A stretch of DNA of 64,000 nt, from positions 261,916 through 325,915 of the forward strand of contig CAVRET010000001.1 in the NCBI GenBank assembly GCA_963720265.1, read 5' to 3'. The notes under the pieces are model-generated. The model was given only the letters and a program-made list of their open reading frames with translations, made no database searches and was not told the DNA's origin. This stretch comes from an uncultured bacterium. GTDB taxonomy: Bacteria; Patescibacteriota; Saccharimonadia; UBA4664. The position numbers and the translations under genes were made by a program. Below, in pieces: positions 29,804-36,769 of the stretch. Position 1 is the stretch's first letter. Each line of letters starts with the position of its first letter.

Positions 29804-30364
29804 TTAGCTGGGCTTGTGGGCGGTAGTGGATAAGACCTGCGCCAGCTCACGCGCGGCAACAGCGCGCATGCTTATGCGGTTTTTGATTTCGGGGCCGAGT
29901 TCGGCGAAGGTTTGGTCGTATCCGTCTGGCACAAAAATCGGGTCAAAGCCATGGCCGTTGGTACCTCTAGGTGGCACAATTCGGCCATGGACCTCGCCGG
30001 TAACGTAGTGGTTGTGACCATTGGCATCGCGGAAGCCAAGCGTGGTGCGAACGATGACTGATTGATCATCGTAGCGGCTGGCCAGTTCTGCTATGCCCTC
30101 GAGGCCGATGCCTTTGATAAACCATTTGACAAGTGGCCCAGGTAAGCTGCCCAGGCAGTTTAGGATGTAGGCTGTGTCATCGACGATAAATTCGCCGTCG
30201 TGATGAAGCGCGGCTTGCTCTAATTTGTGCTCAATAACAACTTGCGAATCAAGGCTCTGAATTTCATCAAGGTCGAGGTCTAGCTGCTGAAGCTCGAAGT
30301 CGGCTAAAAGCACCGACATCTCGCGGAATTTGTTAGCGTTACCGCTGATAAAATAGAGCGGCAT
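29804..30364 (-). CDS. rdgB: Non-canonical purine NTP pyrophosphatase (RdgB/HAM1)
   Basis: [10 protein letters not shown]-terminal motif, GHGFDPIF. Confidence 0.8.
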
Positions 30365-30888
30365 TAGCCGATGACGGCTTCGATGGCGGCCCAGGTGGCG
30401 TCGCCCTCTTCTGGGATTACCATGGTGACCTGGTCACCGGGTTGGGCTTTGAAATAGGTAACGCTGGCGAAGAGTACGTGATACTCCTGGCCGCGGGCTT
30501 CTACGAAGTAGGCTCCGTCTTTGAGGCCGAGCGTGCCAATGAGTTTTTTGCGCTCCACCGGCCCAATCTGTTTGTAAATAAATGTGCCGTCGTCGCCGAT
30601 TATGAGCTTGAGTTGGTCGCCCTGCACGAGCTTAGACTTCGAGGCATAGTTGGCCGGCACCGGATACGACTTGCCGTCTGGGCCAATCATGTGCTGGCCG
30701 TCAAAGCCGCCCTCGATGATCTTGCCGGTCTGGGCGGTAACCGCGGCTTTGGCCTCGGTGGGAGACACAACATCATCCGAGCCTACGAGGCTAGTGAGCA
30801 GTTCCTTGGCTCCGGCCAGGTTCGTCTCAGCCGACTCGATCAGCTTCTTGAGCGTCTTAAGTTGTTTTTCCGTAATATCTGCCACCAC
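30364..30888 (-). CDS. Hypothetical protein (first gene of the rdgB-dnaX-dnaB string, GTG start)
   Basis: 174 aa, no recognisable motif; AAGGA 5 nt upstream of GTG. Confidence 0.4.
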
Positions 30889-30923
30889 CGTCCTTTGTCT
30901 TGGTCTTGCATTACTTGGCTCTA

Positions 30924-30952
30924 TTCATACTACGCCTTGCGAACAAAGTCAA
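30924..30952 (-). promoter_or_regulatory. Candidate native promoter (TTGACT-17-TATGAA on minus strand) for the hyp-rdgB-dnaX-dnaB string
   Basis: Read directly; lies about 40 bp outside the IS982 left end. Confidence 0.25.
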
Positions 30953-30988
30953 AACTGAGAGCCATTTATTACCCGTTTGAGGCTTCTG

Positions 30989-31895
30989 CCCTGAATCTAA
31001 AAACCTAGCCAACTAGAAAACGAGCGGGCGCATACTGTTTCTTGTAAGAGAAAACAAACATGCAACCACTCGCTCTCGAATCACATCATATCGTGGATTT
31101 ATTTGTCGTCATAGACGACGCCGTAGCAGAACCGACCCGGCCGCAGGGTGGCCGGCCAAAACTTGTTCGTGATTCAGAAATCATTACCCTTTTAATCTGG
31201 AATTGTATATCGGATACGCGTCAGCGTACCCTTAAATCCATCTTTCATTGGGCCTTGTTGTACCACCGTCGTGACGTGCCCAGGCTCGGTACATATGGGG
31301 CTTTTGTGGCCCATTGCCACCGTCTTTTGCCTCAACTTCTCGAGCTTTTGGGGCAGATGCTGGTTCCAGCCGAGATCCAGCTAGTAGATTCAACCAGGCT
31401 GCCGGTGTGCCGTAACCACCGGGCCGACAGTTACAAAGTGGCAGCCGGTCTGGCGGGCTGGGGTAAAAACTGGCAGGGCTTTTGGTTTGGATTTAAGTTG
31501 CACGCGGCGGTGGACGTGGAAGGGTGGCTTTCGGCCGTGACCTTTACTCCAGCTGACGTCTACGACGGTCATGTGACGCCCGGGCTGGTACGGCCCGAAA
31601 CTAAAATTGTAGTGGGCGACAGCCATTACGGCGACAAAATCGCCCGGGAAAAGCTTTGGCGCGAGCATGGTGTAGTGGTTGTAGCACCGGTTCATTACCG
31701 GCAAGTTTCTCAAATTATGGCTTCGTGGCAACAAAAACTTCTTGCTGCACGAGTCAAAGTCGAATGCACATTTGACTACTTAAAAGAACATCTGAACTTA
31801 GTTAGTTCATTCCCGCGGAGCAAAAACGGCTATCTGCTCCATTACGTCAGGATTTTGCTGGGCTACCAGATGGGACGGGGTTTTTAGATTCAGGG
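30989..31895 (+). mobile_element. IS982-family insertion sequence, 907 bp, perfect 17-bp terminal inverted repeats, flanked by 5-bp direct repeat TTCTG
   Basis: IRL ccctgaatctaaaaacc at 30989..31005; IRR ggtttttagattcaggg at 31879..31895. TTCTG at 30984..30988 and 31896..31900. Transposase stop codon lies inside IRR. Confidence 0.7.
31060..31887 (+). CDS. IS982-family DDE transposase
   Basis: VDSTRLPVCRNHRADSYKV...WFGFKLHAAVDVEGWLSAVTFTPADVYDG...VVGDSHYGDK matches the IS982 transposase core. Confidence 0.75.
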   Translation: MQPLALESHHIVDLFVVIDDAVAEPTRPQGGRPKLVRDSEIITLLIWNCISDTRQRTLKSIFHWALLYHRRDVPRLGTYGAFVAHCHRLLPQLLELLGQMLVPAEIQLVDSTRLPVCRNHRADSYKVAAGLAGWGKNWQGFWFGFKLHAAVDVEGWLSAVTFTPADVYDGHVTPGLVRPETKIVVGDSHYGDKIAREKLWREHGVVVVAPVHYRQVSQIMASWQQKLLAARVKVECTFDYLKEHLNLVSSFPRSKNGYLLHYVRILLGYQMGRGF

Positions 31896-31903
31896 TTCTG
31901 ATA

Positions 31904-31932
31904 TTGATTTTATATAGTACTTATGCTATAAT
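31904..31932 (+). promoter_or_regulatory. Near-consensus sigma70 promoter TTGATT-17-TATAAT just outside the IS right end, reading outward
   Basis: -35 at 31904..31909, -10 at 31927..31932. Confidence 0.5.
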
Positions 31933-31979
31933 ATAGCCTGAACTTGAACATATCGACTCGCCTAGAAGGTGGTACTCAA

Positions 31980-32294
31980 ATGAGCGCACTGGCAACCGGT
32001 TACGGCCCGCAGGCGAATCTTAGCCCGCTCGTCGCGGTGCTGGTCGTCCTCGGGATCTTCGCAGTTCTCGCTGTCTGTGACCACCTTTGTGGCGGACAGA
32101 AGGAAAGATACGAGCACTGGCTCAGCAATATTCTCGAACGACGTATTGACGAGGCTATCCTCGCCGTGGCCGCTTCGGGGACCAACGTGGCAAACCTCCT
32201 CGACCAGCAGGCGCGCGACCGGCGAAGCCGACTCCATGCAGAGCCGTACAGGCGCACGCGCGAACTCCTGGCCGGTTATGGCCACATCGTTTGA
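31980..32294 (+). CDS. Hypothetical small membrane protein, GC-rich
   Basis: AAGGTGG 8 nt upstream of ATG; one TM helix (LVAVLVVLGIFAVLAV); about 65% GC. Confidence 0.3.
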   Translation: MSALATGYGPQANLSPLVAVLVVLGIFAVLAVCDHLCGGQKERYEHWLSNILERRIDEAILAVAASGTNVANLLDQQARDRRSRLHAEPYRRTRELLAGYGHIV

Positions 32295-32343
32295 TCAAGT
32301 TCAGGACGACGACCGCAGCGCGGCCGTCGTCCTAGAACGCAAT

Positions 32344-32375
32344 TATTCCTAACAAAAAAGAAGGCCACTCGGGTC
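32344..32375. terminator. Bidirectional rho-independent terminator (aaaaaagaag-loop-cttctttttt) between the small ORF and rplL
   Basis: 10-bp stem with A-run and T-run on either side. Confidence 0.5.
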
Positions 32376-32402
32376 TTCTTTTTTGTTCTGCTTGCGCGAG
32401 TG

Positions 32403-33386: not shown

Positions 33387-33600
33387 ATGTTGACTCCTTT
33401 GGTTGATATTAAAAAACTCTTGGCGCACACCAAGAGACATTGAGAATTCCGTAATGAGCGCGGTTGGGCGCTTTTTGGATACCTCGGTAGCCGAATTTTA
33501 AGCCCGGGATGGGCGGCTACTGTCTATGGTGAACGAGAGAATTGTACGTTATCTGGGGGCTTTGGTCAAGATTTCTCCGAATTAACTCCTTCAAGCGCGG
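33387..33600 (-). promoter_or_regulatory. Probable L10 (rplJL) 5' leader / autoregulatory region
   Basis: About 210-nt non-coding stretch upstream of rplJ with several stem-forming segments. Position-based inference only. Confidence 0.3.
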
Positions 33601-33607
33601 ATTTACA

Positions 33608-34084
33608 CTAGCTCTGATAAGAATCGTGGTCAAAATACGATCGAAAATCACCAAGTATTTCCGTTATAAAACTTGGTAATGCCAAGGCCGTGACCACGAA
33701 TGTCGAGCGTTTCAAGGGTACCATAGCATTGCCTTTATTTTTGCCTTGGACTTGCTCGTTAAATGTTAGCGGATAGCTGTAAAGCACCCAATCTCTGGAC
33801 TTCAGGTTTAGCTTGTTTGGGTCGATGTCGCCGGTAGCCTTATTGATATCAGCGGCATCATAGTCGGTCACCCAAAGATTGGCCGTGGTTACGACTATTG
33901 GGACAATAACATTGGGTACATCATTTGCTGGAGTCAAGCTGGGCATGTTTTCGATAAGGCCCGGTATAGCCTCATTGGTTTGCTTAATTGCGTAGTACGC
34001 TCGCGAGGCTTTGTCCGCTTGTCGACTAATTCGACCCTCAGTTTCGCTGAACTCAAATACGTTAACAGCGTGCTCGAAGTCCAT
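33608..34084 (-). CDS. Hypothetical protein, no recognisable family
   Basis: 158 aa; divergent from the cold-shock-domain gene; coding-like composition. Confidence 0.4.
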   Translation of the reverse strand: MDFEHAVNVFEFSETEGRISRQADKASRAYYAIKQTNEAIPGLIENMPSLTPANDVPNVIVPIVVTTANLWVTDYDAADINKATGDIDPNKLNLKSRDWVLYSYPLTFNEQVQGKNKGNAMVPLKRSTFVVTALALPSFITEILGDFRSYFDHDSYQS

Positions 34085-34383: not shown

Positions 34384-35043
34384 ATGGTGGAATTCGGTAA
34401 GGTTAAGTTCTTCGACGACCGCGAGGGAAAGCACTACGGCTTCCTGATGGTCGTCGATGCCGACGACAACCCCACTGGCGAGGAGATCTTCTTCCACTAC
34501 AACGACGGCAAGTTCATCAGCTGCCACACCTTCTATGACCGCATAGCGCGTCGTGGGAACGAATCAATCCGCCTGAAGGTGCCCCGAAAGCTCGACAAGC
34601 TCGTCTTCGAGCGTCAGCCGGGCCGAAAGGGCGACAAAGCTTGCCCCTGGAGCTTCGCCAACGAGTGGGACGTTATCCGGTGGCGCGTCGTGCGCGAGGA
34701 CTACTACATCGAGCCGTACCAGGAAGAGCCAGGTAGCACTACGTTCTGCGACAGCGGTTCTAGCTACAAGAGCACTGTCCGTAACGGCTCGACCACGGCG
34801 GATCTCGAGGTCGTCAGCAAGTGGACCGGCGCGGACGTCGGTCTCTACGACGACGAGCAGGACGAGCCGGAAGGCGGCGGAGGTTTCTACGACGGCGCAA
34901 ACTACTGGCTACAAGTCATCCGTGATGGCAACTGGACCAGGGTCGGCATCGTCAAGCCGGCGCGCGACGCCGAAGACGACGAGGTCGATGATGTGAGCCG
35001 CGCCGAGTACGAATACGGCAAGGCCCACGAGATGTATAGCTAG
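34384..35043 (+). CDS. Cold-shock-domain protein with about 150-aa acidic C-terminal extension
   Basis: GKVKFFDDREGKHYGFL resembles the CSD RNP1 region (G.VKWFN..KGFGFI); C-terminal half is rich in D/E. Confidence 0.55.
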   Translation: MVEFGKVKFFDDREGKHYGFLMVVDADDNPTGEEIFFHYNDGKFISCHTFYDRIARRGNESIRLKVPRKLDKLVFERQPGRKGDKACPWSFANEWDVIRWRVVREDYYIEPYQEEPGSTTFCDSGSSYKSTVRNGSTTADLEVVSKWTGADVGLYDDEQDEPEGGGGFYDGANYWLQVIRDGNWTRVGIVKPARDAEDDEVDDVSRAEYEYGKAHEMYS

Positions 35044-35166: not shown

Positions 35167-36108
35167 TTAAGCAACGTATGGCGTCCCTCGTCTCCAGACC
35201 GCGTGCACTCGGTTGAGGAGCTTTCTTGCAACCACAATGTTGGCTTCGGTATACCGCTTGCCCTCGGCCCGTTTCTTGGCGTACACCGCCTTGAGCGCAG
35301 GGTCGTGCCGTTCAGCGCTAGCGGCCGCCATATAGATTGCTCGACGCAAGTATGGTGAGCCGCGTTTAGTGAGATGCGTATTGCGGTTAAGGCTCGCTCC
35401 ACTTTGCCGGACTCGTGGGTCTAAACCGGCAAAAGCAATGAGCGATTTACCAGTCGGGAATCTGGAAATGTCACCAATCTCGGCTAGGAGCGTGCATGAG
35501 ATGACAACTCCAATGCCTGGGATGGATTCAAGCAGGCTTTTCAGCTCCGGTGCTGCATGCGTGCCGGCCTGGGCCCGAAACACCTCTGAGGCTTCACCGA
35601 GTCGCTGCTCGCAAGCAGCCAATTCAGCAATGAGATCCGCTTCAGCAGGAAGAACGGTGGTTAAGTGGTAACGCATGAGCGTCAGCGCTTGTCGTATGTT
35701 GACGAGTTTTACGCCGGTACGCACCATGGACTTCATTGCTCCAAAGGTCGCCGCTGTCACGAGCGTTCCCTCGCCTTGGGCGGCCACTCGAGCCACAACC
35801 TCAGCGTCGGTAATATCCGTCTTCTTCTTGCGCACGGTGGCCCTCGTGAATTGCTTGGTCGTAATGGGGTTGAGCAATCTAAATGGCACTCCGAGATCCA
35901 AACATATTTGAGCCAGAGGCCGGTGATATTCAGCGGTAGCTTCACTAGCCAGTACCAGATGTTTGTAGCGCCTGCGCAGGCTTTCCACGACTGGCAGAAT
36001 AGCTTCTTTGGTGTTTGCGATTTTGTATTGCTCCTTAACGGCACCGCTTCTATCTATACGAGCTCCAAACAGCATATCTTTGCCCACGTCGAATCCAACC
36101 ACCACCAT
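35167..36108 (-). CDS. IS110-family transposase (DEDD)
   Basis: VVGFDVGKD N-terminus, C-terminal GIGVVISCTLLAEIGDISRF...AFAGLDPRVRQSG...TKRGSPYLRRAIYMAA. Element ends not determinable by eye. Confidence 0.8.
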   Translation of the reverse strand: MVVVGFDVGKDMLFGARIDRSGAVKEQYKIANTKEAILPVVESLRRRYKHLVLASEATAEYHRPLAQICLDLGVPFRLLNPITTKQFTRATVRKKKTDITDAEVVARVAAQGEGTLVTAATFGAMKSMVRTGVKLVNIRQALTLMRYHLTTVLPAEADLIAELAACEQRLGEASEVFRAQAGTHAAPELKSLLESIPGIGVVISCTLLAEIGDISRFPTGKSLIAFAGLDPRVRQSGASLNRNTHLTKRGSPYLRRAIYMAAASAERHDPALKAVYAKKRAEGKRYTEANIVVARKLLNRVHAVWRRGTPYVA

Positions 36109-36262: not shown

Positions 36263-36769
36263 CTACAACAGGAGGAGACCAGACGCTTTACTGGTGGGCT
36301 TACCGATGGACCCGGTAACCCAAAACAAAAACCGCTGGCTCTCCTTCTTTAGCTTAGACCCGTAGGTCTGCTGGGATGATACAAACAAAAACCATGGCGT
36401 TTCTCGGTGATCATTTGACCTATGTGGCTCAAACACCCAGTGCTTAAGTTTTGGATCCGCCTTCTTGCATTCAATTGGGAATACCAAGACAAGTTCAGCG
36501 CGGGAGTAGTCATACATCGGAGCGATTCCAAGGACGTCGATCGCGCCATTAACTATGACCGGGTGAACGCCATAGCTATAGGGGTATTCTCTATGCACCT
36601 TAAATGAGACTGGTTCAGTTTTTCTTAGAAACTCGTAAGTGTCACGTTCGAGAAAAACGCCAGTTCCTATCAGATCTGCCTTGATTTTCTCCATCGCGAC
36701 ATTGGCGCCACCTGACTTGGTTATTGGGGTTTTAGTAGGATCGGAATTTGGTTCCATGCGTTCTTTCAA
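36263..36769 (-). CDS. Hypothetical protein, possible PD-(D/E)XK-like nuclease fold
   Basis: AIDVLGI ... AELVLVFPIECKK resembles a D...E.K motif; 4-bp overlap with glyA stop. Confidence 0.35.
   Translation of the reverse strand: MKERMEPNSDPTKTPITKSGGANVAMEKIKADLIGTGVFLERDTYEFLRKTEPVSFKVHREYPYSYGVHPVIVNGAIDVLGIAPMYDYSRAELVLVFPIECKKADPKLKHWVFEPHRSNDHRETPWFLFVSSQQTYGSKLKKESQRFLFWVTGSIGKPTSKASGLLLL

Follow-up and report, generated by a model that had tools for sequence, protein, structure and literature searches.

With a probability that we put at about 90%, a 64,000-nucleotide stretch of an uncultured bacterium of the Saccharimonadia (contig CAVRET010000001.1, positions 261,916 to 325,915, assembly GCA_963720265.1; hereafter the window) carries a complete 907-bp insertion sequence (IS) of the IS982 family that belongs to a Saccharibacteria-specific clade and has inserted between rplL and the hyp-rdgB-dnaX-dnaB operon, duplicating the 5 bp TTCTG. 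Here hyp denotes a conserved hypothetical gene. The element occupies positions 30989-31895 of the window and contains one intact transposase open reading frame (ORF). An initial annotation made from the sequence alone had proposed an intact IS982-family element at this position, and our analysis bears this out, with IS982 as the best-matching, though distant, family. The element is newly found but of a known family, and its clade is not mentioned in the family review (Fayad, Kallassy Awad and Mahillon 2020; PMC7335449). The features of the element are as follows.

30984..30988, no strand: left copy of the target-site duplication, TTCTG, adjoining the element; the empty site of relative L014 has a single copy, CTCTA
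30989..31895, + strand: insertion sequence, IS982 family, Saccharibacteria clade, 907 bp; Logan contig L001 is identical
30989..31005, + strand: left terminal inverted repeat, CCCTGAATCTAAAAACC, 17 nt; the repeat also occurs in relatives L002 and L021
31060..31887, + strand: DDE transposase gene, 275 amino acids; PF13612 84 bits, NCBIfam IS982 121 bits
31879..31895, - strand: right terminal inverted repeat, which holds the transposase stop codon (31885-31887)
31896..31900, no strand: right copy of the target-site duplication, TTCTG, adjoining the element end

The ends of the element are well defined. The terminal repeats are complementary at 17 of 17 nt, confirming the perfect 17-bp repeats described initially, and they form the longest inverted repeat of the region. 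A search of the 64 kb for this repeat, allowing up to three mismatches, returned two matches only (chance expectation 0.17), and a count of two or more did not arise in any of 100 shuffles. The transposase ORF (31060-31887) is the only long ORF within the element, and its stop codon, TAG, lies inside the right repeat. The annotation had called this position typical of IS982; it is indeed usual among registered members, because many of their ORFs end in the last few nucleotides of the element (PMC7335449, Table 1). The dimensions also agree with those published for the family. Registered elements span 845-1282 bp, with 11-32 identical repeat nucleotides, duplications of 2-10 bp and transposases of about 290 amino acids (PMC7335449); the length of 907 bp, the 17/17 repeats, the 5-bp duplication and the single 275-residue ORF (family range about 208-326 residues) all fall inside these ranges. 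Transcription of the transposase probably relies on its own weak promoter just inside the left end, where a candidate was read by eye (TAGCCA-17-CATACT, 8/12).

Evidence that TTCTG is a true target-site duplication comes from relatives without the element. The direct repeat stops at 5 nt, with no sixth matching nucleotide, and the probability that five nucleotides at fixed positions agree by chance is about 1/1024. Through close hyp homologues (95-97% amino acid identity) we found four orthologous loci, L012, L013, L014 and L015. At three of them (L012, L013, L015) hyp follows rplL directly across a 222-bp spacer that holds neither the IS nor the small ORF found on the far side of the element in the window. 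The fourth, L014, has the order rplL, a 106-residue ORF on the opposite strand, and hyp, which is the arrangement of the window without the IS. When the IS and one TTCTG were removed from the window, the resulting empty site (GTTTGAGGCTTCTGATATTGATTTT) aligned with L014 across the junction without a gap (window, AGGC-TTCTG-ATATTGATTTT; L014, AGGC-CTCTA-GTATTGGTTTT). Because this removal restores colinearity, the repeats that touch both ends mark a true insertion with target duplication, as had been claimed.

Independent support for the ends was obtained from public Logan contigs. An exact-protein look-up returned a 907-nt Logan contig from run ERR11523669 (L001) that is 100% identical to exactly 30989-31895. 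In the same run, the left-flank contig (L011, with rdgB and hyp) stops 30 nt inside the element's left end, and the right-flank contig (L010, with the small ORF and rplL) begins 28 nt inside its right end. Breaks about k-1 from both ends, together with a separate repeat unitig, would be expected of a sequence present in several contexts, or of a circle or tandem junction. We infer that this pattern supports ends at 30989 and 31895, with TTCTG outside the element. Since the 907-nt unitig is separate and the graph breaks at both ends, the element is also likely to be present more than once in the ERR11523669 community. The identical 275-residue transposase is recorded on a further contig of 1,108,292 nt, for which neither the small ORF nor rdgB is on record; records of these two are confined to a 567,794-nt contig and Logan contigs. 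The signs of transposition are indirect, consisting of the 907-nt unitig with its graph breaks and the identical protein on the second contig.

Assignment to IS982 rests on several comparisons of the transposase. It matched the Pfam model DDE_Tnp_1_3 (PF13612) at 84.1 bits, against a gathering score of 27, and the NCBIfam model transpos_IS982 (NF033520) at 121.3 bits (E 4.8e-35), with an alignment that runs from position 2 to position 241 of the 243-position profile. The next-best families were IS5 models at 36-37 bits, far below their own cut-offs of 110-140. IS982 ranked best for all ten clade members tested, about 85 bits above every IS5 model, and NCBI names a 72%-identical relative (P0038) as IS982. 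None of the 299 records retrieved from PLSDB by tblastn reached 60% identity; the matches listed were 27-30% identical over about 95% of the transposase, and every one of these annotated to family level was an IS982-family transposase, IS1592 among them. When the transposase was aligned with seven clade members, IS1592 and an IS982 transposase from Fulvitalea, residues D110, D187 and E235 were invariant, as were R231 and K242, and the predicted DDE catalytic triad is intact. We regard the element as a distant but genuine IS982-family member. K242 lies seven residues after E235 (codons 31783-31785 and 31762-31764) and is invariant in the clade, IS1592 and the Fulvitalea IS982 transposase; IS982 transposases have been described as having no conserved K/R at that distance after the catalytic E (PMC7335449).

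Comparison with named elements shows how far the resemblance extends. Like the family as a whole, the element combines a single DDE ORF that ends in the right repeat with short terminal repeats, and IS982 gives the best-scoring hidden Markov model for its transposase. It differs from the annotated members in its amino acid identity to them of just 27-30%, in a score under the NCBIfam cut-off, in a CC start that few registered elements share, in the missing TT of the end motif, and in its host, since neither Saccharibacteria nor Patescibacteria are among the host groups in the review table (PMC7335449). The registered member IS1592, from Pasteurellaceae plasmids, is 1027 bp long with a 294-residue transposase and a 2-bp duplication (PMC7335449); the two transposases align over 95% of the length (E 2e-18) and have D, D, E, R231 and K242 in common, but are only 27.6% identical. 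Two compact members have nearly the same dimensions as our element and are likened to it by dimensions alone: ISDge8 of Deinococcus geothermalis (907 bp, 271-residue transposase, 19/19 repeats, 5-bp duplication) and ISCaa5 of Ca. Amoebophilus (920 bp, 274-residue transposase) (PMC7335449).

The insertion point can be placed relative to the features that flank it.

30364..30888, - strand: hyp, conserved hypothetical gene, the first gene of its operon, with no Pfam match
30924..30952, - strand: candidate promoter of the hyp-rdgB-dnaX-dnaB operon, TTGACT-17-TATGAA, read from the sequence, with its function inferred
31904..31932, + strand: native promoter of the small ORF, TTGATT-17-TATAAT with an extended-10 TG, scoring 10/12 in the promoter scan and starting 8 nt past the element
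31980..32294, + strand: orphan small gene (the small ORF), 104 amino acids, one predicted transmembrane helix, with a Shine-Dalgarno-like AAGGTGG upstream
32303..32333, + strand: GC-rich hairpin right after the small-ORF stop, -27.8 kcal/mol, z -6.5 (repeat I11)
32351..32387, both strands: bidirectional intrinsic terminator serving the small ORF (+) and rplL (-), -20.2 / -16.3 kcal/mol (repeat I4)

Based on family chemistry, a DDE transposase would have bound the 17-nt ends and cut the target at TTCTG with a 5-bp stagger. The insertion point lies between two pre-existing divergent host promoters, that of hyp 36 bp to the left and that of the small ORF 8 bp to the right. The element now separates promoters that were formerly about 40 bp apart, without touching the core of either. 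The candidate hyp -35 hexamer, TTGACT, lies at 30952-30947 (minus strand), 36 bp from the left end of the IS, in agreement with the approximately 40 bp stated initially. The block around this promoter is conserved in L012, L014 and L015, and positions 30880-30967 are 100% identical in L014, so little effect on the replication operon is expected. Given that neither core promoter nor any gene is interrupted, the insertion was probably near-neutral. Viewed alone, it is an ordinary IS insertion at a probably harmless intergenic site and matters little.

Several observations weigh against the interpretation given above. The transposase scores about 9 bits under the curated NCBIfam IS982 cut-off of 130. 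The published family ends read 5'-AC(N)6T(N)5TT-3', and 57 of 69 registered elements begin with AC and 5 of 69 with CC (PMC7335449); this copy begins with CC and not with the family-typical AC, and the TT of the motif is absent from it (positions 15-16 are AA, and a T falls at position 9 only when counting from the A that this copy lacks). Many clade relatives do begin with ACC (L002, L005, L027, L034). The element is single-copy in the 64-kb window, duplications are missing around L020, L021 and L002, which are its closest relatives with sequence on both sides, and no strain-level empty site was found, the only empty sites obtained lying in lineages about 86% identical in hyp. The first of these points, with the weak IS5 matches at 36-37 bits, could suggest an element of another DDE family, such as a short IS5 subgroup like IS1031/IS427/ISL2, and the size of about 900 bp and a K seven residues past the catalytic E, where the review describes no conserved K/R for IS982 (PMC7335449), recall IS5-type motifs. 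We consider such an origin very improbable. The margin of about 85 bits over every IS5 model holds for 10 of 10 clade members, bona fide IS1592 has the same K at E+7, every listed PLSDB match annotated to family level is IS982, and length, repeats and duplication are all within published IS982 ranges. Misplacement of a repeat by the assembler, which would make the position of the IS here an artefact, is the least credible of the alternatives. Assembly of metagenomes across IS copies often yields chimeras, as the permuted flanks of the three contigs described below (L042, L054, L055) illustrate, but separate Logan contigs reproduce both junctions, reaching 30 and 28 nt into the element. Moreover, the two flanks share a matching 5-bp duplication and line up with a single empty site, which a chimera of two different copies would not produce.

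The age of the insertion is harder to judge. Because the three lineages compared are about equally distant (nucleotide identity about 86% for hyp, 90% for rplL and 72% for rdgB), the insertion is not tightly dated and could be as old as the split. Together with the single copy in the window and the lack of duplications around several close relatives, this leaves some room for an old, fixed and now inactive insertion, a reading that we consider unlikely. The 17/17 repeats, the 5/5 duplication and a full-length ORF with an intact DDE triad argue against long neutral decay. It also counts against this reading that ERR11523669 yields a 100% identical unitig bounded on either side by graph breaks, and that a second large contig encodes the same protein. 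The element looks transposition-competent because of its perfect repeats, its intact DDE ORF and the identical copies elsewhere in the community. Of the initial description as freshly inserted, recency is therefore plausible from intactness and identical copies, but the event is undatable with empty sites known only from lineages about 86% identical. The remaining alternative, in which the small ORF owes its promoter to the element, whether supplied or newly created, is very hard to sustain. Some IS982 members, for example ISAba825 and IS1187, switch on adjacent genes by means of hybrid or mobile promoters (PMC7335449), and the insertion here, like theirs, sits directly in front of a gene that reads the same way; the promoter begins 8 bp past the right end, and no terminator separates the co-oriented transposase gene from the small ORF, so that read-through from one into the other is possible. 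However, both hexamers lie outside the element and its duplication, a promoter scan of both IS ends found no outward promoter-like site, hybrid outward promoters included, and the IS-free locus L014 has TTGGTT-17-(TG)TATAAT in the same register before the homologous small ORF. Since the -35, the -10 and the extended-10 TG are all kept there, the promoter is native to the host and older than the insertion. In contrast to ISAba825 and IS1187, a full promoter thus predates the insertion, and activation is neither needed nor shown. The near-consensus outward promoter noted in the initial annotation is present 8 bp beyond the right end, but it is not the element's: promoter and small ORF belong to the host locus.

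The insertion gains some minor interest from the clade to which the element belongs. A protein search with the transposase gave 886 relatives at E <= 1e-5 (best identity 89%), most of them on contigs of about 0.9-1.2 kb, as is typical of repeats, and those with a named source were assigned to Candidatus Saccharibacteria or Saccharimonadia. Genome and metagenome scans yielded 47 element loci, and the best relative in the GTDB genome scan was 81% identical. In length the relatives range from about 900 to 965 bp, with most under 935 bp, and their ends read (A)CC(C/G)TGAATC. Searches of viral collections at the DNA and protein levels found no relative and nothing suggesting phage carriage, and a literature search found no paper describing this Saccharibacteria IS982-like clade. 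The data thus document an abundant, compact IS982-like clade in genome-reduced episymbionts, a phylum unlisted in the family review (PMC7335449). The clade appears to be active, and a small element with defined ends could be built into native transposon tools; natural competence is known in some Saccharibacteria (PMC10633639).

Adjacent duplications of 5-7 bp were detected in about 10 of 33 relatives, compared to about 0.2 expected by chance (CAGAT, TAGGT, ATTATAA, ATCAAT, GTTAAT, CTATTA, TAGAG, TTCTCC, CCACGCT and TATAAG). By our own count the clade's duplications are about 72% A+T, which suggests that the clade favours AT-rich, intergenic targets. For about two thirds of the metagenome relatives, simple calling of an adjacent duplication failed; at least some of their contigs join the flanks of different copies. 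Chimeric assembly across repeats may likewise explain the missing duplications in the closest relatives L020, L021 and L002. One relative of the IS was found with cyclically permuted flanks on three contigs (L042, L054 and L055, reading X-IS-Y, Y-IS-Z and Z-IS-X), and duplications of 5-7 bp were recoverable from these only by pairing flanks across contigs. The permutation points to chimeric assembly or to recombination across IS copies.

The small ORF beyond the element is a real, fast-evolving gene of a variable host cassette and not part of the IS. Its counterpart in L014 (809-1129, minus strand) is 36% identical at the amino acid level over the full length (E 2.7e-15), the gaps between the two fall in whole codons only, and both have one strongly hydrophobic 19-mer, which in the window spans residues 14-32 (mean Kyte-Doolittle 2.85). 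The coding sequence has kept just 52% nucleotide identity to L014, far less than its surroundings (hyp promoter and leader, 93%; rplL, 90%; hyp, 87%). An exhaustive search of 1.84 billion representatives returned the L014-type protein as the only true homologue; a match to an alpha-helical repeat protein in that search was judged spurious and unrelated. A word-based protein search found only the ORF itself, and there was no match in Pfam, NCBIfam or PADLOC. Of the features ascribed to it initially, the single predicted transmembrane helix, the good ribosome-binding site and the coordinates hold, but the label GC-rich is overstated: a GC content of 0.619 is only 1.3 standard deviations above the window mean of 0.557, a level that 10% of 315-nt windows reach or exceed. 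The bidirectional terminator proposed before rplL was confirmed by folding on both strands, where no shuffle of the hairpin at 32351-32387 folds as well.

A 14-nt inverted repeat (31937-31950 / 32292-32305; CCTGAACTTGAACA / TGATCAAGTTCAGG, 13/14) extends from approximately the predicted transcription start to the small-ORF stop codon and is present in the centroid fold. According to this fold, it could pair the 5' end of the mRNA with the stop-codon region. Its core, GAACTTGA, is kept in L014, without compensatory changes. We also considered whether the small-ORF cassette is a unit resembling a miniature inverted-repeat transposable element bounded by this repeat. This was rejected, as the indel relative to L012 and L015 also removes the promoter outside the repeat; the similarity of the repeat to the IS ends is just about 10/16.

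Comparison of the rplL-hyp spacer among relatives (window, 30889-32402; L012, 3779-4000; L014, 656-1311; L016, 418-3000) indicates a variable spot, because it is empty in some relatives and holds the small ORF only or three ORFs in others, and the small ORF together with the IS in the window. Further relatives have a 130-bp spacer, or three unrelated ORFs (255, 190 and 187 amino acids) at this position. Next to the IS target site, within a few bases, homology with the cassette-free loci L012 and L015 picks up again. Accessory DNA has been gained here repeatedly, and the spacer tolerates this beside the essential rplJL and dnaX-dnaB operons. A broader reading, which we offer as speculation and think rather doubtful, would make the spacer a recurrent landing pad for accessory DNA and the small ORF itself the object of interest. 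As an orphan protein with one predicted transmembrane helix, a near-consensus promoter, fast evolution and an mRNA that the 14-nt repeat could close, it would on this reading fit an episymbiont's membrane effector or toxin-like gene undergoing diversification, and the IS may have landed exactly at the cassette boundary through a preference for AT-rich, divergent-promoter DNA.

On the other side of the insertion, hyp encodes 174 amino acids (173 from the gene caller's start). It has at least 8000 homologues, and those with a named source are labelled Saccharimonadia or Saccharibacteria; no Pfam, NCBIfam or PADLOC model matched it. It is a conserved gene of unassigned function amid essential genes.

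A second insertion sequence, with an IS110-family transposase (PF01548 and PF02371), lies about 3.3 kb away at 35167-36108 (minus strand). It sits among orphan ORFs at 33608-34084 (minus), 34384-35043 (plus) and 36263-36769 (minus), between the serine hydroxymethyltransferase gene (SHMT) and rplJ. Because L012 and L013 have just a 92-residue ORF at the SHMT-rplJ position, this region forms another accessory zone on the flank of the rplJL operon. Upstream of rplJ, a ribosomal protein L10 leader (Rfam RF00557) was found at 33401-33547 on the minus strand, scoring 55 bits against a gathering threshold of 44.

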